From: Blasia pusilla
Lineage: Eukaryota
Assembly (NCBI GenBank): GCA_050084515.1
Contig: CM114271.1
Span: forward strand, 2,914,001-2,978,000
Direction: 5' to 3'
Length of the DNA stretch: 64,000 nt
Shown one piece after another: positions 26,596-57,500 of the stretch (position 1 is its first letter; every line of letters starts with the position of its first letter). The notes beneath the pieces are model-generated. The model was not told the origin of the DNA and did not search any database. It saw only the letters and a list, made by a program, of their open reading frames with translations. Made by a program: the position numbers and the translations under genes.

Positions 26596-27434
26596 TCAGT
26601 CCAAGAACATTAGCGTGAAAAGTTGCAATCCAATGCAACTCCCCCGGTGTCTCTCGAGTACATACAGAGAAACTACTGTCTGCAGATGATATGGTGGATT
26701 TATGTGTGATTCAGGAACTGTATCCAACTGCATCAAATAGAGTAAGAACACAACTGGAGAAGTTTTTCTGCTCGGATTCATATGTATGAAGAGAGCGCAC
26801 AAGCTTGATTATGCATAGATCTGAGAGAAGATTAGAAATGAATCCATTCCCATCGGCTAATAGCTTTAGCTCACCCATGGGTTACCGGGCTCACGACAGC
26901 ACCGTCGTATCCACAGACGCACTTGTAGAAAACTTCTAGTGAACAGGTGAATCAATGTTGACAATCCCATTGAACACCCCTAGATAGGTGTTATGAATCC
27001 AAATGTAGAATCTGTGGTAGCTACAGAGGAGCAGTGTTCCACATACAGCAATTTATGACACAACCGCATTACTCCATTAGGTGTCATGGAAACGTGGAGA
27101 TTTTTTATATAAGGATCACAAATCAATTTTCATTACATTGCAGGATACTTCTACGAACAGTTGGTCAGAATTCCATCAAAATGATAATTACACTGATTTC
27201 CAGGTACGTCGTGAAAGTATTAACTTCGTAGAGTTCAGATCTTTAAACTTGTCCACAATAAGTCAGTCGCACACTTGGTAAACTGCTTTATGTACAATTG
27301 CAACTCCCCCGGTGTCTCTCGACAAGATTTGACGATCTACAAGCACGATTTATGTAGATTGCACTACAAGCACAATGCGCATGCTGCCTACGATGCAATC
27401 CTTGATTAATCACTTGTGACACACAATCTATTGT

Positions 27435-30400: not shown

Positions 30401-30970
30401 ATCCGGCGAATTTCCTTCAAACCCTGCAGACGAACCATAGTGTTAAGAATTACCCTCTGGACTGTGAGATCAAAACGCAAATTACCGATGTGCATCAAAC
30501 ATGAATCACAAGTACAAGTTCGGAGCTGCGAAGGACTCGAGGACTCACCAGAGCTAGCTGAGTCATGACCCTCTGGAAGTGCGTTGCTTAGCGTAGTATA
30601 TGGCGTCTGCAATTCAACATGGGCAATTTATGACTGAAATCCCTGGAAAAGTGCACTTTCAATGATGGGAATGTAAATCGCTAGCTTAACAATCGTAATT
30701 TAGCTCACATGAGTGAAGGCGTTTTGCAAAGGGCATCGGGCAAACCTCTTGTGAATCTTCGTCATCGTCTGATTCGGAAAAACTGCCGCTGTCATCAGCA
30801 TGCTTTTCTCCAGTTGCAGATTCAGATTGGGATCCGGGTTTCACCTTCCCCTTCAATTTCCTGACCTTGTCCTTCGCCTTGGCCTTGACCTTCCCGAAGA
30901 ATGAGGGCTTCTTCTCGGTGACGTTATCTAAACTAGTATCCATATGTCGATAAGACTCCTCGGTCGTCAT
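27435..30970 (-). CDS. LTI65/LTI78 (RD29)/CAP160-like hydrophilic dehydration/cold-stress protein; exons ~30970-30746, 30606-30516, 30423-30127, 29917-29509, 29335-27823, optional 27514-27435
   Basis: Family motifs KKPSFFGKVKAKAKDKVRKLK, ITPLLSTSKAF, VKDTVASKLGY, PDEHDKDLAQIVTES and VVSRVTDAVSSFFGG. GT-AG introns with consistent phases. Ser/Thr/Gly/Asp-rich. Confidence 0.85.
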
Positions 30971-32317
30971 TCCTGTAGATCTCTCTCCTACAAGGATCCA
31001 CAAATCATGTACATAATGAGCACCAACACCTCTCAAGTCAAGTCCCGAGATTCTTCTTCGACTACAAACCCTCCAAAACCTTGATTCCAGATGGAATGTG
31101 CTCCCGACTTCTCCCAACGTTGTCGATCTCAGGGGGGGTTAACTACTGATGGCCCTTTGTGACGAAGTGATTGAGCGACTCTCCCATCTTTTCCAAACAA
31201 TTTCGAAGTTTCAGAAACATTTGGGCCAACCTCTCAAAAGACCTTGAGCTCGTCTTCCACACTACTTCAGCCCCATCCTCTCTCCTTCTCTCTATCTCGA
31301 GCTCGTTATCATCGGTGGGGGCTTAGAGGTCGATGATCGCTGGCGATGATAGTCCGTACGTCCCGCCTGAGCATTACGCTGTGTACACTGAAACTTGGAT
31401 CTATTGAGCTCTGAAATTTAGGACTTCCACCTAAACCTATCAAGTCCTTGAGTCATAAATTGTATCGGGGAGATGACTACCAATTGCAAACTGCGCACAC
31501 ACCGAAGGGTTTCATAGACCCGCTTTGTACTTCCAGTGCTAGAAAACCGAATTACAAATAGTAAATGAAAAGCTCTCGTTCGTTCGTACATCATCTAACA
31601 AAGCGAAACTTTTCTGCATATGGAGCTGGAGTAAACAGTTTCAGCCACAACAAGTACAACACTAGCAAACCATCTCCATGCATCGTCGCTCGATCACACG
31701 ACGTGACTCGAAATGTGTCCACTTCCTTCCTTCCCCCCATTCCCCCACTGGCAGCACAATTCTCCAGACACAACCTGGCAACTATGAACCAATCAATCTA
31801 GAAGGCACTAGAGTTTCCCACCTGCTGTTAAGCCGACTGCTTGAAGCGTATGCGTTCCTTCGCTCGGGTCGTAAACTTGGCTCATTCCTTCTCGTCGGAG
31901 GCAGTAGGAAGCAAGCAGTCACTTCGATTGAGGCTTCAGTGTGACCTCACGGGGTATTAAATCTCTTGGGGCCCCATACCGGTGAGAGAATTACGGACAG
32001 ACCCAAAGCCAGCTGGATCTCTAAGCGACAGGAAGAATGTCAAGCTCAAGACACCTGTCAACATTTCGGGGATTCAACCGTCCGTTCTCGTGGGCGTGCA
32101 AGCGGCAGCTTCCGCATTGGCGTGTCCCATGCGATGATGGCAGGTCTGAATGAATGAAGGAAGCTATTTTACAACTAAGACGGCCATACAGACGGATTAT
32201 CGGGAAGCACTATACCGGTGAGCGAGAGCAGTGAAGTTGTGAACACTGGACATCTCGTGGCAGGTGGCTTGTCCATCCACCTGTAACGTTTTCGATGGGT
32301 ACAGCATCATGCAAAGT

Positions 32318-36051: not shown

Positions 36052-36178
36052 GCTTAGCCCACACCGGGTGCCCGCTACAGGTTTGGCGGGCTGCAGGGGT
36101 AGGCTCGGATGCAGGCTACGGGTACCCGAGTGGCATGTCCGTCCCATGGATGGACTTTTCTGTTTCCATGTAACCTTG
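36052..36178. mobile_element. Terminal fragment of the same hAT-type MITE family
   Basis: Ends GGACTTTTCTGTTTCCATGTAACCTTG, matching the MITE ends near 39650 and the reverse complement of 12692. Confidence 0.7.
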
Positions 36179-36539
36179 CCATCACATTCTCCTAAAAAAA
36201 GGACTCTTTATGACAAAACCTCACACAATGTCATAATAGTACATATCGAGTGTCGCCGGTGTTTTTTGTTGCAAGTAAGCATAGTCTACCTTAAGAAACC
36301 TTTGGCTTCTTCGTCGATAGCCTTCTCCCTAAATAGTCACATACTAGAACATGTCACGATGTTGTGTTATAGCCAAGTTCTCGAATGTCATAAACCTGTC
36401 TCTAAAAAATATCTCAATGTGTTAAGAAAATGCTCACACCTACACATGATGGTCATAAAGATTTGACACCTCATCAATAGCAGAATGAATGGTCAGAGGT
36501 AAATCAGGCTATTGTCCATAGAGCAAAAACCAATGTGAA

Positions 36540-37275
36540 AAGCATTCTAATGATGCTTTCCTACTAAACCTATAGTCCATCGCCAACCATGGCGCGCAAC
36601 TATAGGTCCCACTCTCCTAGTCCTAGGTGATGTCTCTACAAGTCATACTTGCATAAACCCCTCTTTGCTATTTGTAAAACTCACTATCCTAAACCATTTG
36701 CCTAACGATGATCTTGCGATATTATATGATGATCACTAAGTGCTAGATAATACAAGGCTTGGAACTCCCTACAAAATTCGGTGCTTTGGTCTATCAACAC
36801 CTCTACCGGTCCTCTATAAACACAAACACACAAGATATCATACCCACTCATGGCATATGAACATCGAGATGATCGTATGCCAAAAGATCTCAAATAAATC
36901 AAGATCACTCAAATAATGCACACAAACTCCATTTTTCTCTCATGTCAAACCAAACCCACCCTCCTAATGACATGCTTGGATTACTCACAAAGAAAAAAGG
37001 ACCATAGTTCCGCCGTCTCATGCCAAGAGGTTTAACAAAGAGAGAATGAGCTCCAAAGCTCTTTGGGTATAGGCCCTTCCTCTCCCGAGCTCTCTCCATG
37101 GTAACCTATGCTTGCACATCACCTCCTTAGCTCTTAACTTGCTATAAGGAGTCCAAAGCCACTTCTCAAAGTGGAATCTCAACTATACTCCTAATAAAAA
37201 AACTTAACAAAAATAGCAAGTTTCTCTACATAGATCCAAATGAGCCAAGACAAAGGAGAAATCTTCTCTCTTAGG
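36540..37275 (-). mobile_element. Third fragment of the Gypsy family: partial LTR (~36815-37275) joined to an integrase fragment (~36540-36815)
   Basis: Minus strand GPVEVLIDQSTEFCREFQAL...EWDL*..PWLAMDYRFSRKASL matches the copy-B integrase. 36815-37275 is the reverse-complement homologue of the solo LTR at 45019-45657. Confidence 0.8.
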
Positions 37276-38785
37276 GCGCCAGAGCAAGTTTGCAATCTAG
37301 GCGATGCCAAAGGTTATGCTCTTGGCGGTCTTGTAGGAGAATGAAGTGTTGGATTTGCCCGTGGGGGAGGTGGATGTGCCTATGGAGGAGATAGGGGTCC
37401 ATCATCTACATGAGTCGATGGAGACTCACGGCGTGCAACTCGGATGGCTACGTAGATAGAGGAGTTACATCAACAAATTACCCTAATGGCATTATGGTTA
37501 GCTAATGTCGGGTTAGTGGCAACGGCCTCATATGGAGCAACCAAAGACATGGAGGATCATGGTTGGATGTATGGGGATGCATAGATGGAGACAGTCGTTG
37601 TCCTTATCCGTGAAGTAGTTACAAAGTTGGATCCAGAGAGAGGAGAAGCAAGAAACAAACCAAACTTTCTGAGTCCTTTAGTTTGTCTCATGCGATGAGG
37701 ACCCCATTGATGGGTCGTGATTAGAGTTCTCGGAGGATGGATATTTTTGGTATGCAAACAGGATGAGCGATGGGAGAAGCGAGCGTGACGACTCCTATTG
37801 CTCATGCTCATTTGGAACCCAGGTCGAGTTCGTTGTTGGGGAAAACTACTGCCATATACTATGCCCCATGGTTTTTAGCTTATGATGTTATGACATTGGG
37901 AGTTACGCCCGTCAAGGTTCTTTGGCTTGCCCCTACGTATGTGAATAGGGAGATGGTGTTATAGCCTTGTGTTCAAAGGTACTTCCAAAAAAGATGGTGG
38001 ATCAGCCCTAGCGCTTATGTTCAGGCTGTCCACTTAGATTCATAGTAGGTTACGGTTGCTAGGATGGCGTACATGCCCCCAAGACTGGGATAGAGTGTGC
38101 CATAGTTTCTCTATGCATTGTCTTTTTGGATAAGTGGGGAGAGATCTTCCATTTGGTGAGTCCAAGAGGTAGAGTGTTTTTTCCTCAACCCTTAATGTTT
38201 GGGAAGGCCGCGTTTAGGGGGTTGGGCCTGATGAGGGCCAACATAGAGCATTCTCCATTCACGATACGAATTTCTTTGAGTGGAGCGATAACAACGTAGT
38301 TTATCACCCAATATGAGGTCATGGTAAGGATTTGACCACAACATCTATCAGATGAGTCTATGGTGCACGCCAAGGCGAGAGTGACCAATATCGAGTTCTA
38401 TGACATCTTGGTTGGTGGATTAGTGTTGTATCCGATGGGATTTACCCTAGATTATTGGGAGGAGTCAATATCCTACACAGTACAATGGCAATCAAGTGAT
38501 GGATGACTTAGCTCATGATCCGTTCAATTCACGAGAGGAGTAATCGAGAGACTGCCAAGAAAGATGGCGACTCTAGCAACGTTTAATAGCACCATCACTT
38601 GGCTTGAGGATTTTATTGAGGGGCATGTCCATGCCAAGGACATAACTATGATCGACATCCCTATGGAGAGGAGTGTTATGGTAGTAGTATCATTCCATGG
38701 AGAAGAGGTGCCTTTGTGGGGTTCGAGTGAGGAGCTTTGACACTTAGTAGATTCTCGAGCATATTAGTACCTTCTTACTTAAGGC

Positions 38786-39938
38786 TTGGGTTGCACATGG
38801 ACAAAGTGTGTGTCCTTGGACATATTCATGTCCACGTACTTACATCTGACCTCCGGATGGACATGTCCATACGGGCTTGGGTACCCATAGTCCGCACTCG
38901 AGCCCACCCCTAAGCCCATCGCGTAGACCCGAGCAAACCAAGCCCGCGCCTGTTTTGTGGCCCTCGCAAAGCTGGTGGCATGCCCACATGCTAGGTCAGG
39001 CTCACGCCCGTGCGACACTTGCACGGAGGGCTAAGGGCCTGCTATTGAACTCGCACAGGCTCACGTGGGCTCAAGAGCGAGCTAGTCAAGCCAAAGTCCA
39101 CCCAACCCATCCTACAAGCCTACCGTGGGCTCCGAGTGGGCCACAAAACGGCTGCAGGCTTGGCGGGCTCAAGGGTGACCTAAGATGCCAGAGGCGGATA
39201 TCCGAGCGGCATATCCATGGACATGTTTGGACTTGTCCGTTTCCGTGCAACTTTTCTCAGGGCCTGCACAAGGCCGCAAGGCTAGCCTTGAGCTTCCCTC
39301 AGGGTTGCATATGGACAAAGTCGGTGTCCGCGGACTTATGTCTACCTAGGACGAACATGTCAGTGGGGGCTTGGGTACTTGCGGCCAGCACCTCAGCCTG
39401 CCCCTGGAGCCCGCCAAGCCCCTAGCAGGCACCCAAGCTGACCGAGCCCGCACCAGTTTTGTGGCCCGCAGCTAGGCCCGCAAGGCGGGCTCAAGAGTGC
39501 GCAATGGGGGCCTAGCTTGCCATGTGCGAGCCTTTCATGGGCATGGCTACGGGCCACAAATCCGGTGGTGGCTTGGCAAGCCTGGGCTCTAATACGGGTC
39601 GTGAGTACACGGGCGGGATGTCCATCACGTTGACGGACTTTTCCGTTTTTGTGCAACCTTTGCTTCCCTAGAGTGGGCCTTGCTGGCCCGCAAGGCCCAC
39701 TCGTGGTAGGCCCATCTTGTGCGGACCTATGCCAATTTTGGTTGATGCAAGCCACGCATGGGCTCGATGCGGGCCTCCACTCGCGGGCTCGGTGAGGGCT
39801 ACAAAATGGGTGGAAAGAATAGGGAATGGATTGTTGGACTAGATGTAGGCTAGCCAAGCCCGAGTTTACATTGCAAGCAGGGTGGGCTTGCATGGTTATA
39901 TCTGTCTTAGGGATGGACTTTGTCCGTATGCAAACTTG
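38786..39938. mobile_element. Nested stack of three hAT-type MITEs (38786-39255; 39300-39661; older host ending at 39938)
   Basis: TIRs (C/T)(A/T)GGGTTGCA...TGCAAC(C/T)TT. Perfect 8-bp TSD GCTTCCCT at 39292-39299 and 39662-39669. Degenerate TSD CTTAAGGC/CTCAGGGC around the first copy. Confidence 0.85.
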
Positions 39939-39939
39939 A

Positions 39940-40210
39940 CATGATAAGCATGCCACAAGCCGCCTTTCCTACTTTTATGAGTTTCCCCACTTCCTATGCA
40001 TATAAAGAGGTTGGTCTTGGCTTGGTCTAGGATGACCCAGCATAGCGATTGATGGAGCCCAACATTGATAAGAGAGAATGAGTGATGGGGTTCCCCATAG
40101 GAATGACGGTAGTATTGTTACTATAGGGGCATCTTGATGTCATGTTTTGGATCAAACAATGGACATGAATTACTTTACATGGATTGTCAGCTTAAGAGTA
40201 GTTGATCAAC
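39940..40210 (+). pseudogene. C-terminal part of the retrotransposon DNMT domain (motifs IX and X) in copy B
   Basis: MPQAAFPTFMSFP (copy A: MPRAAFPTFVSF), then EPNIDKRE*VMGFPIGMT (motif IX-like, 40055-40108) and HVLDQTMD (motif X-like, 40141-40164), followed by the linker into RT. Confidence 0.8.
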
Positions 40211-42954
40211 GTTGGATAATGTTGCAACATGTTACTTTTATTGCACTTATTAGCCCCATGCCTACCGAGATCGTTTAGGCACTGGTTGGGGTGAGATCCA
40301 AGGACATCAACACATCCGAGATGATTAAAAAAGACACCCTTGGACCTCTTGGGATTTTTGCAGGAACACCAAAAGGTGGCAGCCATAGCATCGGGCGTGA
40401 TACATGGTCTTGCACACCAAGAAGCAATAGGAGGTGAGATGTCCGAGTTGGCCACAAGGAAGTAGGCGAGTCTTATTGTTGGAGATAGGGTTGCACCATA
40501 GCAACCAAAACCACTCATGCTAGAGAGTCTTATAGTACTCATAATAGAGACTTGGGAGCGAGATATGGGTTGGTCATAAGTTAATAGGAGGAGATGGATA
40601 CCAGATACATCGATTCTTAAGGAATCATATGAGTTTTTTTGCATTCCATATGCATGATTTGGGTGCACTAACAAGTCCGAAATCTACATTGAGTTGTCTA
40701 GCAACACGACGATCTTCCAACAACCCTACAAGTATAATCATATGGGGAGGACATTCATTCATAGTAGAATCCATGACTTGGTTGAGGCAAGAGTAGTGGA
40801 GATGTTGCATGGAGAGTATGCATCTCCTACAATCATGCTTGCCAATTAAGAAGGATGTGCATAGCAAGTGGACTGATAGGTGGATGTGCGGAGATTACTG
40901 ACATATCGCTCGGCACACAAAGTCCGATAGGTATGTCATGCTCACTCCTAAGGAGATCTTTGATGTTATTAGGCATGCGAAGGTCTTTAGTTCTTTAGAA
41001 TTTTGAGTTGGATACCATCAGTTGCCTATCCAATTGGAGGACAAGCATAAGACGATATTTTGGGGCATTGATCTTCACATGAAGGATTATTGGTACGAGT
41101 GATGCTTCTAGCTATTTGGGTTAAAGAATGCCCTGATAGAGTTTTAGAGGTTCATTGATAGGATCTTGATAGGTTTGGATTTTGCTAGGTATTACATTGA
41201 TGATATGATAGTCTTTAGCACCACGATTGAGGAGCATCAGTGACATCTTGAGGAGGTATTTCAACGATTGCAATTACATACGTTGAAGATGCATCCGCGT
41301 AAGTGCATGTTCTTTTACAACCAGATTGAGTCCTTGGATCATACGATATATCCAATTGGCCTTGGTGTTCAGCTAACAAAGGTAGAGGATATATCACACA
41401 TTCCACGCCTTGTGAAGGTGAGTCACATTTGCACTTTCATGGGATTGGCAAACTTCTATCGATGGTTTGTTAAGGTTTTTAGTTTGATTGCGAAGCCACT
41501 AACCTATTTGACCAAGGTGGATCACGAGTGGCAATGGAGGAATGAGTAGGAGAAAGAAATTTAGCTAGTCAAGGACAAATCAATGTTTGTGCCTATACTC
41601 AAGAGATCTATCAAGGGGCATCCTTTCCAATTGCATACAGAATTGAGTATGTTGGAGCTTGGAGTGGTGTTCACCCAACATGATGATAAAGATAGAGAGT
41701 TTATGGTGCCTTATGCTAGTCACTCAAATAATGTTGTAGAGACAAAGTATAGCTCGTATGAGGGTGAGGGCTTGGCTACAGGGTGGGTTTTCGTGCATTT
41801 CACATGTTACTTATTCGGCAATCCCTTTACCATCATTGCCAATCATCAACCACTTAAGTGGTTGATGACGTCCAAAAAGCTTACAAGGAAGCTTGTTAGG
41901 TGGACTCTATTGTTGCAAGAGTATGATTTCCAAGTGGCATATCGACTTGCGACACTTGCTAGGATGCAAACAGGTTGAGTCATGATCTATGTTCGAGTTA
42001 GTGAGTTGCAATCAGAGCTCGTTGGCATGGAGAGAGTGATGAGGAAATGGTATCTGGATGGTACAAGCTAGCTTATTTGGGTATTTTGGCTATGGAGAGC
42101 CCAAGTATGTGTTGGGACTTTGATGGTGAGGTTTGATGGAGAGTACTTAGATCCACAAACCCTTGAGGAGATAATAGGTGATTAAGATATCCACGAGAAT
42201 GGGATAGTCTTGGAGTATCTTTGTGTGGGCAATGTTGCAAGCACATTGGGTACTAATGAGCGGTATCGAGTCCTACAATGAGCCATACGGTTTGGATGAG
42301 AGGAGATACATATCTTTCAAGTGTGAAAGGATGGTAGACTATGCGCGCGTAGTGCTTCATCTTGTGCAAAAGGCACGATTGGTACAACATGCCCACGAGG
42401 AGTTGGGACACTTTGGAGTAAAGCGGACTTATAATTTGCTCCATATAGAGCATTGGTGGTGAGGCATACAAACTAATGTTTAGCGATTTGTTGCTAGATG
42501 CATGGTGTGTGATCGAGTTTGAGCATCATTCAATGCTCAGACTTCACAATTATATCCACTATCGATCATGGGTCTAGCCTATAGATAGAGTTTGGATTTT
42601 TTAGGATCTTTACCTTTGACCAAGCGCCATAATTGTTATGTGTTGGTCATGATTAAGCACTTCTCAAAGTGCTTAATTTGGTTCCATTTCTTGACAAAGC
42701 GAATGAGGGAGTAGCGTATGCATTCTTAGATCAAATGTTGATTCATTATGGCCCACCACTTGAGGTGTTGACGGACCAAGAAACTAAGTTTTTTGGGGAG
42801 TTTCAGGCCTTACATGACCAAGCACTAATCTACCACCGCATTACTCTGCAAGTTTATTGTGAGGAAGATGGATTAGCAGAGAGGATCGTTGAGATAGTGA
42901 AAAGAGTTTTACGCAAGTATGTCTTGCAAAGAGATTATCCATGAGATTAGGACC

Positions 42955-45900
42955 TATTGAAGACTGAGTTATAATCAAGCTCATCGGACATCCAAACTGC
43001 TACATTTGATATTAACACGAAGTAGGAAAGCTTAATCTTGGTTAGTCACTTAAGCATGATTATCTTAGCTAGGATTAGTTAATCACAGTTAGTCTAACTC
43101 AAGACCATGGTTACGGTTAGAGGTACGGCTGCTTGTACCTTATAGAACGGAGAAGAGGACTATCCTCCACTCATTCTCTGATTGCAAAATTTCATTCTCT
43201 ATGGTGGTGTGTGAGTGTGAGAGTCGTATCCCATTAATTATCTTTCTTTAGCAGTTTTCTACATGGTATCAAAGCAATAAGATAACATCAATTAAAATTC
43301 TTTGTGTTTAAGGAGAGAAGAGAAGCAAAAAAAGGCACCATTTTAGTTTGGGAGAAAGAAATTTGAGTTAGAGCTCACTCGCAGAAGATTTCAAGTGGAG
43401 CTATGACGGTGACAAAACTTTGGAGGCATTTTTTAGGGCTTTCCCCGTCTTTTTAATAATCAGGGTCCACATCGTTCCATAACAAAATGGAGTGCTTGAG
43501 AGGAAGAATCGACATATTATTGAGGCGGCACGTGGTATGTTGAATGAGAAGAATAAATCTAAGGTGTATTGGGCAATGGCTATAGCGGGTGCAGTCTTCT
43601 TAATCAACCCAACTCCAAGAGAGGGAGTTCATGATAAGACTCCATTCAAAGTCTTTATAGGAAATAAACCTGATTTCTCTTTCCTAAATGTATTTAGCCA
43701 TATTTGTTATGCTCAAGTTCCTTCTAAAAGACGTTAGCAATTAGATCCCAAATCTGAAAGATGTATCGTTATTGGCTACGCTGATGGAACTAAGGGATAT
43801 AAGTGCTATATTTCATCCTCTAGGAAGCTTCTTATTAGTATCGATGATGGTTTTGATTATTAGTATCGATAATGGTTTTGATGAGCTAAAGCCATGGTAT
43901 GCTCCATCTGAGTCTATTCCACCTCTAAACTTGTCTATTGAGGGTGAGAATATGACTATAAACCAATAGACATTGCCTACAAATTCCCCAAGTACTAGTG
44001 CAGGATTAGGAGAGGTCCTAGATTCTTCAATTAAATCTGTCAGTCCATGGTCAGGAATAGACGTATTCAGCCTATTGACACTAGTCAGATTTTGAGTCAG
44101 ATATCAAAGATATCCACCTCAAAATAACAACTTCGTATATCAAGTAGAGTCACACATCCTATTCATAGATTGATAAATGAAAGATTCTTTGTAACACATC
44201 ATGAATATGTGAGGATTACCCTTCAAGAACAAGACTGAGTTGTTTTGAAGAAGTTGCAAGCAAGGTTGAATAGATTGAAGTTATGGAGGAAGAGCTTGTT
44301 GCATTACGACACCAATAGACCTAAGAGTTTATTGATATATCTTCCAATAAGGAAGCTATTCGTTGCAAATGGATTTACAAAGTCAAGTGCAATCAAGATG
44401 ATATAGTGAATAAATATAAAACCAAATTGATAGCCAAGGGTTATGCACAACAATATGGCATCCATTATGAGGAGACATTTAGCCTTATTGCAAAGATGTC
44501 GACTATGGGAACAGTGGTTGTCGTTGCAATAAGTAAGAAGTGGAAATTATATCACATGGATATCAAGAATGCCTTCTTGAATGGATATCTATATAAGAAA
44601 GTAAACATTATTCAACCACTTGGATATGAGCATCAAGAGTTTCCATTCCATATTTCCAAGTTAAAAAAAGCTCTATACGGCCTTAAGCAAGCTCCAAGAG
44701 CTTGGTATGGCAAGATTACATACGTTCTACAAGAGTTGTGCTTTCGGATATGTGATTTTGACTTCTCGCTATATATCTTGAGAGGACAAGATCATAAGAT
44801 TATCATTGTGTTGTATGTTGATGACCTCTTGATTACTCAGAGTACTCAAGATATGGCACAACAAATCAAGTTAAAGTTACAAGCAGAATTTGATATGAAG
44901 GACTTGGAAGAACTTAAGTATTTTCTTGGTATTAAGTTTATCAAGGTGGGAGAGAGCATGTGATTATTGCATCGACAAATGCAATAATCACATGCTCTTC
45001 ATATGCTTTCAAAATATATGTCACGTCCTTTAGGATAGATCGGTGAGATCTAGTATAGCCTCTTCAAGAGTAGTGGAGGACAGGCCTAGGAGATCGAGGA
45101 TGACCTGCTGAGGGAAACCTGAGAGAGTAGGTTTTCCCTTCGTTTTGGCTCATTTGGAGCCAAATTGAAGAACTTACTATTTTAGGTAAGTACCATTTTG
45201 AGTATATGATCAATTTCCTATTTTTGGTAAGTGGCCCTTTACCTCCTACATCAGATCAAGAGCCAAAGAGGTGACTTGGGAGAATAGGTTACCATGGAGA
45301 GAGCTTGGGAGAGGGGAGGGGTATATATCCCAAGGAGAGAGAGCTTGAGAGCTCATTCTCTCTTTGTTGAACATGTTGGCATGAGGCAGCAGAGCTATGG
45401 TCCCTTGCCTTGTGAGTGTAACCCAAGCCTCTCATTAGGAGAGTGGTTTTGGTTTGACATGAGAGAGAGTGCACACTTTTAAGAACTATGGTGTGAGATT
45501 GTGTAGAGAGAGATTGGATCTTACTTTACATTGGAGATATTTTGGTACTTCGTGTCTCGTCGTTTGGATGCCATGAGTTAGCATGGGATCGTGCATGTTT
45601 GTGTGTGTGTTCGGTGATGGCAATGTATATTGTGTAGCGATCTGTATGCGCACGACATATGGTATAACGGCTTGTAAACCAATATCTAAACCGTTGAATC
45701 AGAGTATGAAGATAAGAGTGGATGAAGGAGACTTGCTTGAATATTCCAATATGTACAGGCGCATGGTTGGAAGTCTGATGTATCTCACTATAACTAGATT
45801 ACACTTGAGCTATGTACTTGGCCTAGTGAGCTAATTTATGCAAGCACCTCAAAAACCTCACCTTGATGTTGTGAGGAGAATTATGTGGTATGTGAAATTC

Positions 45901-46735
45901 TCTGTTCAATTTGGGATTCAATTTTGAATCTTCTTCGAGTTTACAATTATGGGGATTCACATATGCTGATTGGGTTGGGAATGTGTCTAATAGACACTCC
46001 ACATCTGATTATTCATTTACCTTGGGAAGCGTTGCTATAAGTTGGACTTCAAGGAAGCAACTTATAGTTGTTTTATCTTCAATAGATATTGAGTACAGAA
46101 GAGCAACCAATATAGCATGTGAGGCGGTGTAGATTCATCAAATACTTACTGAGATTTGCGTTCGTAATTTAGAATCTAATGTAATATATGCAAACAATAT
46201 TAGTAGCATCAAGTTTGCTATTAACCTTGTGTTTCATGCTTGAACAAAGCATGTTAAGATGCACTATCATTTTATCAAAGAGAAAGGGCTCCCAAGAGAG
46301 ATTGATTTTGTGTATATAGGTACATATCAGCAAATTGTTGATATCTTTACAAAGGCATTGTCCAGAGAAAAGTTTGAGATGTTTAGAAACGTTTTAGATG
46401 TTAGAGATATCGATATAAACTTGAGGGGAAGTATTGAAGACTGAGTTAGAGTCAGACATCCGAACTACAAAATTTGATACTCGCACGAAGTGAGAAAGCT
46501 TAATCTTCGTTAGTCACGTAAGCATGATTATCTTAACTAGGGTTAATTAATCACAATTAATCTAACTCGAGACTATGGTTAGGATTAGGGTTAGGATTAC
46601 TTATATATATTTTATATAATTTAGAAGCGAATTAGCCTCCACTCATTCTCTCACTACAAAATTTCTTTCTTCATAGTGATGTGTGAATGTAAGAGTTATA
46701 ACCCATCCGTTACGCTTTTTTAGGAGTTTTCTACA
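42955..46735 (+). mobile_element. Ty1/Copia retrotransposon (copy B, same family as copy A); LTRs 42955-43263 and 46432-46735; gag to mid-integrase deleted
   Basis: Paired LTRs TATTGAAGAC...CTACA; PBS TGGTATCAAAGC; PPT GAGGGGAAG; integrase QNGVLERKNRHIIEAAR; RT YKTKLIAKGY, LYGLKQAPRAWY, YVDDLL; degenerate TSD GGACC/AGTCC. Inserted into the Gypsy B integrase. Confidence 0.95.
45019..45657 (+). mobile_element. Solo LTR (~640 bp) inserted in the RT region of Copia B
   Basis: Termini TGTCACG...CACGACA. Comparison with the empty site in Copia A (CTTTCAGAATATGGTATGAC) implies a 4-bp duplication TATA/TATG. Homologous to 36815-37275. Confidence 0.88.
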
Positions 46736-49700
46736 AGTCCTACGATTGCCATGGTTGGCAACGCAATATAAATTTAACAAGCAAGCATCCTTAGCGTCTT
46801 TCTCCTCTTACTTGTTGCTTTATGATCAAAAGCCTCATTTATCTACGACCATTCATCGTAATGATGGTAAGGTGTTAAATCTCGAGGACCCTCGTATATG
46901 GATATGAGCATGTTCTTAGCGGGCTGAGTTATTTCGAAGAGTTATGCCCATGACGTTCGAAAACTTGCGATTACGTAATATTGGGATACGTTGAGATATA
47001 TGACTATTTAAGGAGATGATTATGGATCGATATCTCATGTACTCTCCAGTTGGTGCATCATGTGATCACATCCAACGACATAAGTGCCGTCTATTGTAAG
47101 TAGACATAGTTTGTTCTCTTATTGAAGGTACGTGATGATATATGATTTGGAAGGACTATGTGCGTAATTATCCGTCATATCATCTTCCTAACACTGATGG
47201 TATAATTCATCTAAGCTTAGTAGTAAGTTTTACAAGCGTCTATTATAGTTGGTGGGGATTTGCTCACGATCTAACCACTATATTTATGTGTGATCAATGT
47301 TCGAGAGGATAACACATGACGCGTTCGACGCCACCTCTCATTAAGTTTTTTCAAAGATAATGGATGTACCTTTAATATATATGTATGTATATACATACAT
47401 ATTCGGCCATATTTTATATTTAAGCTAGGGTATATACATTCAGGAATTAAGCAACACATTGTAGTACAAGCAAACGACTTGGTGAAATTGGTTGAGCTTT
47501 AGAAAAGAGGATTCCTAAGAAGACCATACATGCTTGGGGAGACTCGACATGATTAGTGCTTGGCAAATTCTTGATTACCTAAAGAACACTCAATTGGTTA
47601 TGTCTCTAAGTCTTAACCTTAGTCTTTCTATTGCAAAGCTAAAGGTAGAAAGTGCTTAGGGGCAAAGCTAGGAAAAGTAGAGACCTAACTCTACAATGAC
47701 ATACCATAGATGATAAGATCATCACCAAACATGGAAATTTTGGCCTACCTTTCAATTTGCAAAGATTTCAGTTTCATACATCAAGTTGAATATAGTCATC
47801 AACTAGTGATATACTTCAAATATTATTTGTTTCATATGGCTACATGTACTTTTAGGAAGAACTAGTTCTTGCCCGCGGTCCTGTGCATACACCCCCTCCC
47901 GTGCATATACTCGCTCAATGCTATAGGGACGCATGTCATGTTTTGCATGTGTCACCATGTCACAAACACTCCGCAAATTATAGTATACATTGGAGTTAGT
48001 CCACATGAATCAAACTCTAAGATATCTTCATTTAAACTATTAATATTAGAAATCCTAGAGAGTAAAGATCTATGTACCCTTAGATTTTTTCTGTGGTAGA
48101 GCAATATTCATGTCCACTTTCTCTTTGGAATGTTATTCTTTGCTGAGTTTGCTAGTGATAATTGTTGCACAACAAGGGTATGTATACACTACTAGACCAT
48201 AAAAAACGCTTTGAAAGATTACATATTACCCTCAAGTAATATGGGTGAGAAAGTAAACTGAACTAATACAGGAGGGACCATGGGATAAACATCTCTTCGT
48301 CTCTTAGTGGATGATAATGGGCTGAGTATCCACTGGTAATGTAGAGTAGTGAGTTGTGAAGCTCAACCGATGCGGAAATATCTGTAAGTAGAACTTAATA
48401 TGTTAAGGGTCAACCATAAGCAATCATCCAAGTGTGCTCACAACTGCAATCAGACCTCACAGGAGTTTCCCTTTCTCTTCAGAAGAATGACATCACCTAT
48501 AAGAGAATATCTTGGAACTTATGTTACCTTCCTTGTCCTTCAACTTTTCGTGGACCATAAGGAGCTAAGGTCCCCCATCAACAAGGACCAATAACCTCCC
48601 ATCAGCTGCTTATTTCGAGATCATGGAAAATCACTTCTTGAAACTCTCCTTAAACTTGATTTTGAAGTACAATTGCTGAATGCAAAATGGCATTTCTTAG
48701 TGTCGGGTGTCCAGAGACCTGAGTACAAGTTGAGTCAAAGACATGGAGAGTCATCACATTCGCAATTCTTTAAGAGACGGAGGCTTCCACTACCAAAATG
48801 CTACATTGTACTCTTTAATAGAACATCTCATATAAATAATTGAATAATCTTTAGATTTAAATCAAACTGTTAGCTTCAAGAATTTGATTTATTTCAAGTA
48901 TTTGTTGTCCTCGCGCTAGTCGTTATGGATCTACTACTATATAAATGAAACATATGAACAAAGTACACTTGCGTTTGACATATTCTCGTCTGAAGGTCCT
49001 TTCATTTGGCATCCGATAATCTTTGCGTGGACCTTTGGGTCATTTTGTTGGAAGAAAATGTTGAACTTCCCTTTTTTCTTACCAAAACTCTAATGGATTT
49101 TGATGAAAAATAAGAAAATGTATAAAAGAAAACTCCGACAGATGGCATACCACTAAGACCTACAATCCACTTTCTCCAAGGTTCGATGTCCTTCCGAGTG
49201 GCATACTACCATACATGGATTTCTTCAAATACGCAGACATAATCCACAAGTTAACTTCAAATGTAAAGACTAGGCTACAGTTATCCAGATCGACTAAAGC
49301 CCAAGGAAAAGGTGCAACATGTGTCAAGTTCCAATCATATTTCAGTAGATTCCCTATAACTAGGTACAGTCATCCCAACTACTAGAACAGTCAAAATTGT
49401 TGAAGATGAATTGAAAGAAAATTCCTAAGTAGGTAGCAAGCCTTGTAGTACATGATAAAGTCATCAAGAAAAGCATCTGAGAGTGCAGGAGTATCATTTG
49501 CACCAAACCCGTATTTCTTTTCTTTGATAAGTCCCTTGATCGACTGATGGCAGAGATGTCTTAACACCTACCTCCATGAACTTGAAGTACATTAACATTA
49601 CTCCCTTCGGGATCTAGTAATCCTCTCGCAACTATAGCCTTCACATCTTGGAGGTATCATTAGTCTTGGTTCCAGAACTCTCTGATCAAACTAAGAACTG

Positions 49701-49742: not shown

Positions 49743-49974
49743 AATACACTACCTCCAGTTAATTACTGCAGAGGTCTGTCATGCGCACCTAAGCAAATTC
49801 CCTCTTGCAGTGAAGAAATATATGATGTCTAGAAAGAAAAAAGTTCACACTAGAGTTGAATACACTACCTCCAGTTAATTACTGCATAGGTCTGTCATGC
49901 GCCAGTAAACAAATTCACTCTTGCAGTGAAGAAACATGTAATGTCTAGAGAGAAAAAAGTTCACACGAGTTGAA
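49743..49974. repeat. 116-bp tandem duplication
   Basis: AATACACTACCTCCAGTTAATTACTGCA...AAAAGTTCACAC..GAGTTGAA begins at 49743 and again at 49859. Confidence 0.92.
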
Positions 49975-51588
49975 TCATTTCTAAATCCAAGAAACCCTAA
50001 ATCATAACCCATACACTGGGTGCCTACAAGGAAACTTACATCAAAGCGCAAGGATGAAGGTGAAGGAGATCATGGATCTATTGATATTGATACACCAGAA
50101 AGTCAACAGACAAAATCAATCTTTTTGACAAAAGCGGTCTTGAAAGTCCACAGTTGGTGCAAACATTTGGTAGTATGACGTTCAATGACAAACCCAGTGA
50201 CTGCATAAAAAGCAGTGTGGGGGTCAAGAGAAAAGAATGCGTGCAAAGTTTTGTACAGGGTTCAACTTACCACTAGTAAAATTACCGCCGCAGTTCAACC
50301 TTTTCAGCATGTGATGCTACCAAGGAAATCTGACAAATTTTAGTCCACATGATTAAATTTTCAACCGAGACTGCCTTGCTCCAAGGGCTGCCACAGATAA
50401 AGTTACCAGACTAAAACTCCAATTTGTATTTGTACTACCTCATAACTCAAACATTCTTGCACAAGAGCATCACACCTCTTCCGTATCTATTCACTGTTAG
50501 AAACTGCTTATGATCTCTGATGAGGGAGACTCTTACATGAAGAAACTCCAAGAAAATGACAGTTTAGTTTCAGACCAGGGATTTGAGCCGCCTGTAGTAG
50601 GTGAGAAGACATTACAAGTTCTTTCCTCAACTTTAAAGCAATAACAAAGCCGCAAAAGGAAATATCTAAAAGTACGTAGTACTTGTCCTGCATGTAAGAT
50701 GACCACAATCACTCAACACAACACGCCATACCTCTGGTTTGAGAGTACAATGGTGATCCCCTTTTTGATACTGGTAAAATATGTGAAATTGAAATGATGA
50801 GCTTATTACTTATTGACCCATCCAGGGCACACTCAGTCACATCTCCTGCACGGCAAAAAGAAAATCAGAAACTAGTCCTGATAAAGGATCTATGGCACAG
50901 GATATTTTCTTCCATATACTGAATGCAGTCAATGTATGACCAGATTGAGACCTATTATGAATGCCCTTGGTCGCTGCCATTAACAGACCTTCTGCACGGG
51001 AAACATCATAACAAGAGTACATCCCAAAATCATCATTGTCAGGGCTTGAAAAAAATCACATGATGAGAAACAACCAGGTGTAGGTAAATTGTGCAGCAAA
51101 TTATTGATGATCTCAAATAGAATGTTTGGGATTACTCTAGCACCTGACAATTGGGTCGACAAACCCATTTCAAGAGGGTTTCTGTTTCTGCTGCCTACGT
51201 ACCATGTTGAAAAGGGGCTAAAACACACTTGTACAAATGACTGAACGGCGAATTTTGGATTTTGTTACAAAGGACAGTGTAGCCATGCATAAGTGGTACA
51301 CCACCTCAGAGTCTTACTCTCCAAGCACTGCAACACTGGCTGCAGCTTTCAACAGCGATGCCTAACAGAATTGTGTAAGGCTGTCCCAAAAGAATCCATG
51401 TAAATACGGTACAAATCCCTACACTATTAACATAAGGCCATGACATTATTCGACTTCCATCTAATCTGAACTAAGCCAGTAGAGCTTTCGTTTGATCATA
51501 AGCACCTTGCAGCCTTACAACAGAATTCAGATAAACTCTACGAATTAGAAGCAAGAGTCATTTCAGTACTATGAGTCAGTGCAGGCCT

Positions 51589-54500
51589 TCACATCATCAA
51601 CCCAAGATCCGCTAGATCATCCATTGGGACCTCCAAACCCATCAAACACTCTCCTTGGTGCATACTGGCATCTTCCTCAAAGTCTTGTAACCATGATCCC
51701 AAGTCTGGACCTTGTCCACCCAGATCATTCACGCCCAAGTCTTCTATCCCTGGAATAGGAATGTTCGACAGATCAACAACTTCATCAGCATCAGGCACAG
51801 CGTTTTGACTGGCAAGGGGAGGAGCAATAGCTGGAACCTCCTCCTTAGACTTCACAAGGCCAGTAAATTGGTGCACGGAAGATTGCCCAGAAGGCCGATC
51901 CTTGGTTGATTCAGCAGTAGGCTTTGCTAAGAGGCCATTTACTGGCTTCAATAATGGACCTGTCTTTTGCCTAGGCTTAGTTTTTGTTTTCCTCTCAGCC
52001 TTCACATTGCCCACTCCTTGTCGAGCTCCCTTTGCACTATCACTTCGTACTTGACTCTCCTTGCCATGTCCTTTCCCATCTCGTTCCCGCTCACTCCTCT
52101 TCCCTTTTGTTCCACCCATAGCATTTGCTCCAAGAGCATTGACGTCCCGCATTCCAGAAACCCCAACAACATCCTCCAGCAGGACCTCTCTTTCTTTGGC
52201 TCGCAACGGCCATACATCTTCTTTGACTCTATTGCGTTCTGCAGATACTGGCAGAGATTGTTGCCGAACTTCTAGAATGTCCTTCTCAGACTTGATCTCA
52301 GTCCATCGAACAACAGATCGCCCTCCAGGGCCTTCACTTGAGACAGAGGCTGCCAAAACAATAGTAAGGATTAGAACAACCCTTCAGACTCAACCATAAA
52401 GATCAACATACATTTGAGTTGAAAAGCTCACTTTGTTAGTGACAATCCTCTTATCATCAAAATCATTCCATCGAAAGGGGGTTCTCCTCTAGGTGCAATA
52501 AGCAATGACCACTAGACTTCAGCTTTTCACATAAAAATCTTGCAGTAAAGAGATGGCACACCTGATGCTTTTGGAGGTTGGAGAACAGCACTAACTGCTG
52601 CTGCGGGTTCACCATTTATTGATGCAGCTGCAACAGCTCCTTCAGGGGGCCCAGCAGCAACTGTGTTGCTCTCAGTCTCTTTAGGAGCTACACAGAAAAG
52701 CAAATCCTTAAGTGTGGCATCAAAGCAACCATGCCCTCCTTCATAGGCACGTACCCTTGCCAAGACCCTCTTGGCAAATGCCAACCCTGCTGCCTTTGCT
52801 CCTTTAGCTGCTGCACTCTTCCCTCCAGAACTGTTTCGAGAGCCCTGGATAGCATGGAAGAATTATATCTTGAGTTAGTGTTATGCGCTTCAAAGAATTT
52901 GGTGTAACAATGAACACCTGGAAACATCCTTGTTTCATAGCAGCTTTTAGATCTGTCACAGGTAAAGATAATTAGAGAATGAATGAATTGAGTTCTTGTC
53001 CACGGGAGAAAAAAAGATTGTAGAGAACAGAAGTAAACCATTCGCCGTGCACAGGCAATCTCCACAAGCTTATCCACAGCAAACCGTTCACGATCTCTGT
53101 TACAAGTTATCCAACAAATAAGTCAGAATTCTCATCACCTGATGGCACACAACACGAGTGCAATTCAATTCAATCTATTACATCGCCACGTTTCTGGTAC
53201 TGACTTTCTGGGTCTCTCATGCTGTTAGCCAGCGTTTGGGTTTACAAAATTCCAAAAGAACAGATAATGCCCTACCTGTCTTCTACTTCCTTCTTTATCA
53301 GCACTGTCTTCTCCAAATTGTTTACTCGCCCCTTATTTGCGCATACCTGTACAAGCCGTGTCCAAAACTACCTCAGAGACTGGCTTCTCTTCACACAAAT
53401 ATCGCTAACAGCAGAACAAGTAGCACGATTTTGATCAAGGCTGACTGTAAAACCACAGTGATTTCAGGTTGCTTCTGCTCGTTGGAAAAGTCAAACCCCC
53501 ACCTGATCTATAAGTTCACGCTGCACCTTACGGAGCTCCTCACTGATTTCATCATCCTCTCTCTGAGCAAGATCTGGCTGCTTTGAGAGTTGGAACAAAT
53601 AAACAAACAAACAAACAAACAAACATGGTTGAGACATTGTTATGCCTAGAAGGTGAAGTTCCAAATATCTGAAATATAGGTAAGGAGGGGGACACTGCAA
53701 CAATTTGCATTCCATACCTCTCTGAATATTGAGAGGGAGAATATCCGAAACATAGCTGTGACAATAATCCCCATTAAGTTTCAATGCATAGAAGATGAAC
53801 AGGATGAGGAAAAGGTTGGGTCTGCATACCACTTGCTCAGGAAGCAACCCAACACTTTGTAGCTCCAGTAGGATTCGGTCATCCACACTCATGCGCTGAT
53901 ACTGAAGCTCCCATGCTGTCATATTTGCGACCGAACCAAAGGATCTAATCCCCCGTGGATCCTCCTTACCTGTACTTCCACTGCCTGATAAAACTTCTTC
54001 CCCTATTCCAATCTCGGATTTCACTACAGAGCACAAAGTATCTGCCTCCACATTGGCAAGAATATCATCCCCTTCACCACCAAGATCCTCACGAGATTGA
54101 CTCACTCCTACACGACTATGTCCATTGGGAAGTAGAAATGCCTCGTTCACATACGTGTCTCTCCCACCTACAGTCCATCTTTCGATGTCCTGTCTCCCAA
54201 TCTCTCCATCTGAGTCGCCATCCAGTCGATCACTTTCGCTCATACTACCAGGCCGAGGAGAATGATCTCTCACATACTCCGATGAGTCATCTTGACAATT
54301 CTCATCCCCATTCCTTCCTTCATCAAGATCTCCTTCATTTATAAGAGCAGCCAGTAATCTTTGAGAAAGAGGTAAAAATTTTTCAAACCATCCCCCGCTC
54401 ACCCCTCTTCTCCCTCCTTTTCCAACCTCATGCTTGTCCTTAAGATTGTGAAAAAGCTTTGTCACAAACCCATCATTCTCAATGCTGCCATTTGCCAGAC

Positions 54501-57500
54501 ACATTGACTTCCCACCACCACCATCCACACTTGGAGAGACTGGTGGAGTACTAGTTCGGGGCACCTCCATCTAACATAGCATAAACAGCCAAACAAGAAC
54601 ATGCTCAGACTCAGACTCCAAATTGGGAAATAACTATTCTATACAACTTAATGATAGCATAAACTCTAAACCTATGACCAGGTAGGCACACAGCTTCAAC
54701 CTCAATATCACAGCCAAATAGATCAGAGCAGATAGTCAACTTCCTAAAACAGAACACCTAGCTTTACTTTTTCCAACACTCATACTGGCATAGAAATTCA
54801 CGATCCACAGATGTATAGCATGAATAGGTCCTCTACCTTTCCAAACTGATCCCCACAAGCTGGAATTTGCAACACAGGATCTCCCTCCTCAAGATCTTTA
54901 GCCTGAAGTATGCCAAGATCATTGACAGAACGTCCAATACGAAATGAGATCATTATTTTTCTGACACCTGTCTGGCATTTAGATCAGCCATACCAAGTAG
55001 TAGTCCATAGTCAAGGATCTAGATCATTAACCTTCAAGGATATAAAGAAAAGAGTCTGGACCTGTTGTTGTAGGAAACTCATATCAGCCGATGTTAAAAA
55101 AGCAAAGTATGGCTCCATTTGCTTCCAAAAAGCATTTGAACAAGCCGCTCCTGTCAAGAACATTTAGCCTCAAAATCCATGAGAACATATAGTACGCAGG
55201 TGTAGCATACCAACCAATTAATTTACTACACAATTAGCATCGTTCAGAATTTACTGGAAGTTTCAGACCTTTTTCACCAACATATCACAACTCGCACGAA
55301 CATAAGGCACAAAATACAAGCCTACCTTGGGATTGTCTCCCCCAAATTGGTCACCACTATTATAACCTTATGAGAATGACAACTAAGACTACACCAGAAA
55401 TGAGTCCAATAAAAGAAGAGCAGGGAATAGATGAAGTCTTACCACTTGCATTGACTGCCTTCCTTATCGCATTGACTAGCTCCTCTCGGTCATCATCAGA
55501 CTCTCCTGCAAAGCAACAAGCAGGAGAGTCTGATTCCGATTCCAACAAGCAGGACATATCACCATCGCTTGATCAAGACTTCTGTACTAGAACTAGGAAT
55601 TTGCGGCAGAGTAAGGAATATTCTCAACTTACACCACAACCACATTGCTATGTAAGATCGTAAATCTATGTAAAAACTGAAATTTGATTCCACCGTTGCA
55701 CAGGAATTCTTCAAAATGATCAGATAAAACAATACTCTGGCAAGTTTCTTATCTAGACTCCAGTCTGACAAAGCTAGTAATTAAGTTGCAAAAGTAGAAA
55801 AAAACCAAAGGTGGCCCCTTGTCTAGACCTGAGATTTCGAGGGTGCCATTTCCAACTGGCCGCCGTGGTCTGGTCATGGGTTTGCGATCAATTGTGTCCT
55901 TCGTTGGAGGACGACCAGGCCTACATGACAAACCAAAAATTTTATCAGCAGCTACAAGGCCTACACCAACCAATCATCTTCTATTGCATAGTCTCATCAT
56001 CATTAAGTATGAAGTACTAACCTAGTTAGGAGATGAATGGTCTTAGCAGAGAATGACCTTGTCAGTAAATACTGTGCTCATGAACTTCAAGGGATAGTGT
56101 AAAATGGATTCCACTGTCTACAAGACCCAGGGAGAGAGGATCCAAACGAGTAGAATATAACTACCAATTTTGAAGTGTGCTATCTGAGAAAACCTCTATC
56201 AAACCCAGAATATTGAGAGGAGGTCCACTTGCAGATCATAGTCCAGTACAGAAAGACGGCCGAAGAGTGTTTTAGGTTGGGTGAAAGAAAGATCAAGCAG
56301 AAATGATATAAACCCTACCAGGCAAAGGTCCTAACTTGACAAGCTACACCGAGAAAGATAAGAGATTATCAACTATTCACAATAACTTGCCCACAACTTC
56401 ATCAGTTAAAGTAATATGAAAAGATAATGTTTTAGTTCAATTCTCAGCTTACTCTATGATCATCATAAAAGTCTCCATACTCATCTTAAGTCTCTTTGGA
56501 AGAGATCCTACATCAATCTGAACCCAGAAGGCCAACCCAAGGTAGGAAGGAAAGCTGTAGTACAACTTTTCAAAAAGACTAATAGCATCCTAAAAACTCC
56601 TCAAAGGCACCTAATCTGCTTGGAGTGACTTGAACAAGAAGTCAATAGCACTACTTTGCACCACTTATTCAAGTAAACCAAATGCAATATATTCCTCGCT
56701 TGTTTGTCTTGCGAGAGTCGTTATCACTGGATTCCAGACCCACAAAACTAATTGGCAGGCATTGACACGAGAAGCATATGGCAATTTGTCTTCCACCTAA
56801 CGACACTCTCCTGTCTCCTCCACTAGAAATTGAAAAATACAGTTGAAAGAGTTTGCCAACACCAATCCCTCAAGCTGCGCCCTGTGTGATATCTTTCATA
56901 TTGAACTTGACAATTTTTTCCAACATCACTTTCTTTGTATTTACAGACCCCTCTGGGGTCTTATCCTCAATTCCAACTTTCACATCTAAAACAGAAAGTC
57001 ATCATCCCTGAATCTCACACTTTGGCCTTAAGAAACTTTCCTCCTCTTCTCATACAAGAAGAAATGTTTTCATTGAGTAACTTCTTCAAGTGATTAGACA
57101 TTTCTGGCAGGACTTTGCTTCCAGGATGACCACAGAAACAAACAAGAGCCGGAAAAATATGTGTGACATACCTCTCATGCTTTTCAGGACCAACTCGAAC
57201 ACTTCTTAGCTGCTTGGCATTGGCAGAAACTTCCACCTTTTCCAACACTGGGTTCACTACACTCGTTCTTGGTGCAACAGCACCTCTACCACTCCGTCCT
57301 TGTCTGCGAACACCATCTCCACCCTCCTCTTTGGTCACAACTCGTGTTTTCTTTGCCGGTGCTACCAGACTTCCCATCTTTTGACTTGACGGAGCCGTGG
57401 GTTTTTGTTCCCAGTCCCCTTGCTTCTTGGATTTGTCTTTCACCTTCTCCCCCTCATCTTCTGATTCATCACTTTCAGAGAGGCCCACAGAAGTTGTAAC

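Follow-up and report, generated by a model that had tools for sequence, protein, structure and literature searches.

Gypsy-Dnmt3 retrotransposon remains in a Blasia pusilla contig and a conserved, apparently leaky stop codon behind their methyltransferase domain

The 64,000-nucleotide stretch of Blasia pusilla DNA analysed here (GenBank assembly GCA_050084515.1, contig CM114271.1, positions 2,914,001 to 2,978,000 of the forward strand), in the following referred to as the window, carries four fragments of gypsy-type retrotransposons, designated A, B, C and D. On the basis of homology, A and B are classed as degraded members of one plant-type Ty3/gypsy long terminal repeat (LTR) retrotransposon family which encodes its own DNA cytosine methyltransferase (DNMT). 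Elements of this kind are already known as Gypsy-Dnmt3 and were first described in Klebsormidium nitens; the window copies are assigned to them because annotated proteins from Marchantia polymorpha, Sphagnum fallax and K. nitens are among their relatives. All copies of the gypsy-DNMT family in the window are dead and none is functional. The findings are, with high probability, best explained by dead and nested Gypsy-Dnmt3 remains whose first open reading frame (ORF), ORF1, encoded Gag, protease (PR) and DNMT and ended at a conserved TAG codon which appears to be leaky.

Structure of the copies A and B and their intact relatives

Copy B extends on the plus strand over positions ~37417-42954 and 46740-47363, as delineated by blastn and tblastn, and contains 23 stops among 1025 aligned codons and at least five frame changes. 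It is 5'-truncated and possesses neither a zinc knuckle nor an LTR. A weak remnant of the gag C-terminus or the adjoining spacer (37417-37940) corresponds to residues 463-652 of the polyprotein of L001, a related metagenome locus, as judged from collinear high-scoring segment pairs (HSPs) with an E-value of 7e-05 in a 1.2-kb search. A truncation of A and B at an identical 5' point was considered and dismissed, as a relaxed search places the start of B further upstream at ~37417. The protease remnant (38081-38698; tblastn E 5e-31) contains a 9-residue gap which takes out the stretch holding the DSGA active site in relatives. Right behind the DNMT lead-in LWGSSEE (38714-38734; tblastn) the coding sequence breaks, and DNMT motifs I-VIII are gone, lost to a deletion plus an insertion resembling a miniature inverted-repeat transposable element (MITE). 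The remaining C-terminal part of the DNMT (39935-40212; tblastn E 9e-16) includes the MPQAAFPTF segment, motif IX with the sequence EPNIDKRE*VMGFP (39935-40114) and motif X with the sequence LDQTMDMN (40141-40212). A conserved in-frame TAG followed by CAA CCA was localized by linker comparison at 40499-40507. Subsequently, Pfam and tblastn identify reverse transcriptase (RT, RVT_1), RNase H (RH) and the zinc-binding domain plus the first part of the core of integrase (IN) between 40508 and 42944, with tblastn sub-ranges of 40508-42341 for RT-RH and 42346-42944 for integrase. Membership in the gypsy group is indicated by the Pfam matches RVT_1 (E 7e-15), RT_RNaseH (E 4e-23) and Integrase_H2C2 (E 3e-11) in that order, and tblastn aligns copy B collinearly with L001. 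The integrase is split by a copia element, beyond which its C-terminal part (46740-~47363) is recognized by P0033 (2092-2167), P0176 (815-1032) and P0183 (808-1017). The first-pass annotation had assigned the entire range 37276-47260 to this copy; the gypsy element was correctly identified, but the nested copia element at 42955-46735, which lies inside this range, has to be taken out.

Copy A, a 5'-truncated and degraded gypsy-DNMT element on the minus strand (positions 1-2131; blastn, tblastn and stop count), runs off the window start within the RT. Its 579 aligned codons include 17 stop codons, the conserved TAG among them, and at least three frame changes were found. A pre-protease lead-in (1730-1993), equivalent to residues 645-729 of the L001 polyprotein (tblastn E 1e-07), is directly followed by the DNMT lead-in; the part corresponding to residues 666-911 of P0003, a 1332-aa Gag-PR-DNMT ORF, which includes the protease, is deleted (tblastn). 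The DNMT domain (857-1727; tblastn E 4e-67) is composed of a segment with motifs I-IV (1727-1425) and a segment with motifs IV-VIII plus X (1447-857). Recognizable are motif I (VLDLFGGIGT), motif IV (GWPCQGQS), motif VI (ILENVPIL), a degraded motif VIII, the MPRAAFPTF segment and motif X. The domain lacks motif IX with its surroundings (~30 residues), and stops are located in or near motifs VIII and X. The DNMT-to-RT linker and the N-terminal part of RT (1-741) match residues 1346-1594 of the L001 polyprotein with 49% identity (tblastn) and contain, at 571-579, the conserved in-frame TAG, here followed by CAA CTA and again in the context UAG-CAR-YYA. An AT-rich stretch beside the truncated 5' end of A harbours a tandem array (3481-5086) with a period of ~180 bp and units which are ~72% alike.

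The lesions of A and B are complementary, and tblastn with P0003 and L001 agrees with their earlier description almost point by point. In blastn comparisons, B 37771-38177 matches A 2131-1729 (69% over 414 nt), B 39948-40036 matches A 1020-931 in the MP.AAFPTF.SF segment (80% over 90 nt) and B 40142-41101 matches A 927-2 in the DNMT-to-RT linker plus RT (70% over 966 nt). The ratio of nonsynonymous to synonymous substitution rates (dN/dS), calculated according to Nei-Gojobori with codons mapped through L001, is 0.24 for the 53 DNMT codons shared by A and B, but with a saturated dS of ~1.5; rough values for RT are 0.55 between A and B over 121 codons and 0.18 between A and L001 over 123 codons. 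Ratios below 1 are compatible with the view that much of the A-B divergence may date from active lineages.

The order gag-protease-DNMT-RT-RNaseH-integrase, as derived from homology, is a composite of A and B which was checked on near-intact relatives. A search with the motif I-IV piece of A led to one protein cluster, P0001, with 55% identity and an E-value of 1e-28. Its members include the 1332-aa proteins P0003 and P0006, in which a zinc knuckle of the CCHC type and the aspartic-protease motif DSGA are accompanied by PF00145 above the Pfam cut-off. L001 encodes zf-CCHC, the DSGA protease, DNA_methylase, RVT_1, RT_RNaseH, Integrase_H2C2 and rve in one frame, its PF00145 match reaching an E-value of 6.8e-12 and 45.9 bits versus a cut-off of 22. 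This locus is not fully intact and carries a private in-frame stop at 3192-3194 within the gag-PR-DNMT ORF, where P0003 has Q. P0033 combines the same module order in a single ORF of 2188 aa, and PF00145 lies above the cut-off in L001, P0003 and P0033. The window copies map collinearly onto P0003, L001 and other relatives (tblastn), and their identities to Marchantia, Sphagnum, Calypogeia and metagenome relatives are similar (45-66%). The postulate of a methyltransferase as fixed module between protease and RT is borne out by the same order in L001, P0033, Marchantia and Sphagnum proteins and the K. nitens protein KFL_009030040.

The METHYLTRANSFERASE kind in the element is, judged by similarity, a Dnmt3-type C5 cytosine methyltransferase. 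A phmmer search of the PDB with P0005, which has an intact DNMT, yielded DNMT3A/3B/3C as best matches (E 5e-11), with alignments which cover motifs I-VIII followed by IX-X in unrearranged order; the same search gave E-values of 3.6e-4 for the bacterial M.HaeIII and 0.12 for the plant DRM2. Intact relatives keep all DNMT motifs, whereas the window copies do not (A is devoid of motif IX and B of motifs I-VIII). Among the 47 matches listed for the P0003 DNMT region, 15 are "hypothetical proteins" of Marchantia polymorpha, and one each originates from Sphagnum fallax, K. nitens (KFL_009030040) and Cymbomonas; KFL_009030040 (P0230) was found with P0003 at an E-value of 5e-53. A scan of viral contigs revealed no relatives of the element, and a search of sequencing runs listed a single DNA run, with a word share of 0.05, and no RNA run.

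As the window is a patchwork of nested insertions and A and B are both 5'-truncated, one might regard the DNMT-like stretches as pieces of a host Dnmt3 gene placed by chance beside retrotransposon debris, or A and B as the halves of a segmental duplication. Either possibility is hardly credible in view of the identical PR-DNMT-linker-RT order and junctions in A, B, L001, P0033 and the Marchantia, Sphagnum and K. nitens proteins. Moreover, A and B differ by ~30% at the DNA level and have unlike flanks and unlike lesions. A host gene with introns or with PWWP/ADD-type partner domains was not seen at A or B.

The stop codon between methyltransferase and reverse transcriptase

The nucleotide sequences around the stop read GTT GCA CCA TAG CAA CTA in A, GTT GCA CCA TAG CAA CCA in B and GTT GCG GCA TAG CAA CCA in L001. 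The shared consensus GTT GCN NCA TAG CAA CYA represents the best-conserved nucleotide block of the linker and is maintained among three sequences which are otherwise ~50% diverged in protein. In all three, the TAG is in frame with the coding sequence on both sides. L001 contains three long ORFs in one frame, and its TAG at 4509-4511 coincides with the point where P0003 and its cluster mates end; the ORFs 3195-4511 and 4512-6809 share the frame, and homology resumes at the codon next to the stop. All four P0003-cluster proteins among those listed terminate at this point, and 6 of the 20 listed relatives (Marchantia or JGI proteins) do so at the equivalent point. A further 4 of these 20 relatives, all of them Marchantia or Sphagnum gene models, run into the RT, each omitting a different stretch around the stop. 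Gene predictors step over stops in this manner, and the fused DNMT-RT models are therefore probably prediction artefacts which hide a two-ORF layout; the stop-skipping models are P0192, P0196 and P0198 of Marchantia polymorpha and P0219 of Sphagnum fallax. The other 10 of the 20 are partial, end elsewhere past the DNMT, jump elsewhere or are continuous.

The first-pass annotation had embedded the DNMT in one continuous Pol ORF and had itself specified conserved stops between DNMT and pol as evidence to the contrary. Exactly such a stop, an in-frame TAG common to A, B and L001, is present in the lineage of the window. Stops between DNMT and RT in A and B could in principle be mere decay, as both copies are full of stops (see above) and some relatives, namely P0033, P0041, P0220 and K. 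nitens P0230, encode DNMT and RT in one uninterrupted ORF. However, A and B have this TAG in common with L001, whose reading frame is otherwise open, and in all three it is embedded in the same 15-18 flanking nt. As the ORF1 proteins of relatives moreover end at precisely this position, we consider a continuous Pol ORF in this lineage as very improbable.

The sequence UAG_CAR_YYA is described in the text of Firth & Brierley 2012 (PMC3542737) as the type I leaky-stop context found in tobamoviruses and further plant viruses, and each of the three DNA sequences (A, B and L001) conforms to CAR-YYA in the six bases behind its stop. On account of the context UAG-CAA-CYA we therefore favour programmed readthrough over an unrelated downstream gene despite the conserved stop. 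The tobamovirus-type systems share with the window lineage the in-frame UAG, the subsequent CAA and YYA codons and the location of downstream replicative enzymes in the same frame (PMC3542737). In contrast to them, the window stop follows Gag-PR-DNMT, not Gag or a replicase core, and readthrough at this site is predicted from the sequence. The latter point, together with the fact that gene callers give two proteins, i.e. ORF1 with ~1330 aa and RT-RH-IN(-PHD) ORFs with ~1040 aa and without PF00145, might speak for the TAG as a true terminator, the RT-RH-IN part being made by reinitiation, from a spliced or subgenomic RNA or by trans complementation. We regard this alternative as unlikely, since the downstream ORF lies in the same frame, homology starts directly at the codon after the stop and the post-stop bases in all three DNA sequences conform to CAR-YYA. 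In addition, Pol of gypsy elements is normally produced fused to Gag. A comparable known system is the gag-UAG-pol arrangement of gammaretroviruses. In the lineage of the window, the DNMT ends the gag-protease ORF, and RT-RH-IN probably needs readthrough. Relative to the recoding site, the DNMT is most likely situated on the side of the abundant Gag product and not in a continuous Pol.

Based on the readthrough model, we propose the following scenario for the expression of the element: Most ribosomes would stop at UAG CAA CYA to yield Gag-PR-DNMT, and a minority would read through to yield Gag-PR-DNMT-RT-RH-IN. The DNMT would accordingly be made in step with Gag and might enter the particles within the Gag precursor, inside which the protease might set it free. 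The freed DNMT would then be placed to methylate new cDNA or nearby DNA, as proposed by de Mendoza et al. Release by the protease and packaging into the particle, already suggested by the first-pass annotation, are steps which we infer only. For a bryophyte-centred Gypsy-Dnmt3 lineage, consisting of the window copies and the L001/P0003 cluster as well as, by protein ends or gene models, of Marchantia and Sphagnum members, the balance tips slightly towards a general version of this scenario. Therein, the DNMT would be the C-terminal domain of a Gag-protease ORF upstream of a tobamovirus-type leaky UAG, would be made at Gag stoichiometry and loaded in bulk into particles, and RT-RH-IN would be produced by readthrough only, while the same module would occupy a second slot elsewhere in a large, old and modular clade.

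Several points weigh against the favoured explanation as a whole. The uninterrupted ORFs of P0033, P0041, P0220 and P0230 indicate that the stop is not universal, and for Marchantia and Sphagnum the evidence for it consists only of protein ends and gene models. The leaky-stop motif is short, and the readthrough assigned to it is putative. Pfam gave no significant DNA_methylase match on the read-through frames of A and B (best E 0.24 for a 67-residue piece), and the DNMT assignment of the window copies therefore rests on homology to intact relatives. No LTR, primer binding site (PBS) or target-site duplication was found for the gypsy copies within the window; direct repeats flanking A, B or C are not present, but all copies are truncated, so that this absence says little. 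Since the window contains no LTR of the gypsy family, the recommended dating by LTR divergence is impossible here. The dN/dS values have to be considered as rough, as synonymous sites are near saturation in most comparisons. Finally, the retrotransposon DNMT of K. nitens showed no detectable methylation in yeast, a result called inconclusive in the text of the study (PMC5890265), and a methylation activity of the gypsy-type DNMT is therefore unproven.

Comparison with known elements and the wider family

The nearest described counterpart is KnitGypsy-Dnmt3, according to the text of de Mendoza et al. 2018 (PMC5890265) a Gypsy LTR element which encodes an unrearranged DNMT of the Dnmt3 type. The K. 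nitens protein KFL_009030040 (P0230) contains, like the window lineage, DNMT, then RT, then IN, and matches the DNMT, RT and IN pieces of the window at 30-47% identity. Unlike the window lineage, its gene model runs continuously from DNMT into RT with no TAG between, and its DNMT is only ~44% identical to the P0003-type DNMT. The text of PMC5890265 contains no mention of readthrough, frameshift or protease; Fig. 4c and the supplements were outside the comparison. The literature covered here provides no relevant report on readthrough in DNMT-bearing retrotransposons, although the figures and supplements of PMC5890265 may show the ORF layout.

Retrotransposon-borne DNMTs are likewise described, in the text of the same paper, for SymbioDIRS-Dnmt3 and SymbioLINE-Dnmt of Symbiodinium (PMC5890265). 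SymbioDIRS-Dnmt3 carries its Dnmt3 inside Pol and performed de novo CG methylation in yeast (PMC5890265). In contrast to the elements considered here, the Symbiodinium elements belong to other retrotransposon classes (tyrosine recombinase or LINE) and are attributed to an independent acquisition (PMC5890265). The EpiLTRs of Cymbomonas and Euglena are, as far as the preprint text conveys, also gypsy-type elements with a DNMT; they differ in that their DNMTs are DNMT4-like and located at the 3' end of pol (bioRxiv 10.64898/2026.05.21.726589).

A HMMER scan with P0005 retrieved 3895 representatives, in clusters at 50% identity, with E<=1e-3 and 240 with E<=1e-30; the family thus consists of at least 240 such clusters at the stricter threshold. 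Within the best 150 relatives, 62 comprise a DNMT only, 14 display the window order, i.e. the DNMT after PR and/or before RT, and 74 have the DNMT after RT/RNase H and/or before integrase. The order RT-RNaseH-DNMT-integrase is therefore the commoner one among the classifiable members of these best 150 (74/88 versus 14/88). Its representatives include unnamed gypsy proteins with the arrangement RT-RH-DNMT-IN-PHD, for example P0024, P0028, P0031, P0034 and P0037. Their DNMT belongs to the same family, with E-values down to 1e-66 versus P0005 and all motifs aligned; the difference to the window lineage lies in the position of the DNMT after RNase H and in a PHD finger which usually follows the integrase. 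In many relatives, many proteins of the second order among them, motif IV has EC in place of PC, and the DNMT of several second-order proteins escapes detection by Pfam.

If these assignments are true, DNMT-bearing gypsy elements would not be a peculiarity of Klebsormidium but would form a clade which is large, old and modular. Retrotransposons equipped with the enzyme that normally serves to silence them are a rare and puzzling case. In the literature covered here, the gypsy-DNMT form is described only for K. nitens; a 2026 preprint names it for "streptophytes", and a 2025 paper refers to DNMT3s embedded in retrotransposons "in streptophytes". New aspects of the present analysis are that a further plant-type genome also harbours copies of the family, that Marchantia contains many copies which are annotated but have gone unrecognised, that two alternative positions of the DNMT module exist in the wider family, and that the window lineage has a differing expression design, in which a conserved stop of leaky appearance follows the DNMT and leaves it on the Gag side. 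The last point is a modest but real detail. The family is also much larger than the text of the literature covered here conveys. These aspects render the dosage and timing of an element-borne DNMT accessible to experiments in Marchantia; the window copies themselves are inert relics.

Further fragments, nested insertions and surroundings

Copy C is an isolated integrase fragment on the minus strand (36160-36905; blastn and tblastn with relatives), which is assigned by similarity to the same or a sister gypsy family; a former DNMT cargo cannot be told from the fragment. The third integrase/LTR fragment reported earlier at 36540-37275 is correct with respect to its integrase piece, which really spans 36160-36905, but not to the LTR, as 36936-37275 is another small repeat. 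This repeat (minus strand) lies directly between copy C and the 5' boundary of copy B and is 75% alike to a plus-strand counterpart at 45118-45466 (blastn). Fragment D (22670-22846, plus strand; tblastn) consists of ~60 residues with the DNMT lead-in and motif I (…LDTTGVVW*HLEQGIRVLDLYGDINT…) and was hit by 24 HSPs from relatives with a best E-value of 1.3e-06 in a 4.5-kb search.

The Ty1/copia element which splits the integrase of B (42955-46735, plus strand; Pfam and blastn) is bounded by LTRs at 42955-43263 and 46432-46735 which are 77% identical. The 5' LTR is immediately followed by the tRNA-Met-type PBS TGGTATCAAAGC, and a polypurine tract precedes the 3' LTR; the 5-bp flanks, GGACC and AGTCC, match imperfectly. 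In the read-through frames of the copy B region, Pfam detected its RVT_2 domain and, likewise further downstream, an SH3_retrovirus domain. The small repeat at 45118-45466 interrupts the copia RT, corresponding to an insertion of ~640 bp relative to a second copia element at ~7901-12248, which is ~80% alike to the nested one.

The MITE-like insertion in place of the DNMT motifs I-VIII of B (38786-39938, found by repeat analysis) is GC-rich (58%). It is characterized by 17-nt terminal inverted repeats (38791-38807 and 39917-33), and two internal units of ~510 bp, and the terminal motif recurs several times in its interior. A tandem duplication of ~117 bp with 90% identity is present at 49743-49975.

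The remaining long ORFs within 18-31 kb and 51-63 kb resemble host exons but gave no Pfam match (7 host ORFs scanned). A long host exon at 53494-54570 on the minus strand gave a borderline match to Ada3, the histone acetyltransferase subunit 3 (E 4.6e-05, 23.9 bits versus a cut-off of 24.5). The observed/expected ratio of CpG amounts to 0.93 in the gene-bearing region 25700-31200, to 0.48-0.63 in the gypsy, copia and MITE-like sequences and to 0.39 in 51500-58100. The CpG depletion in the transposon copies fits a methylation-driven loss of CpG.

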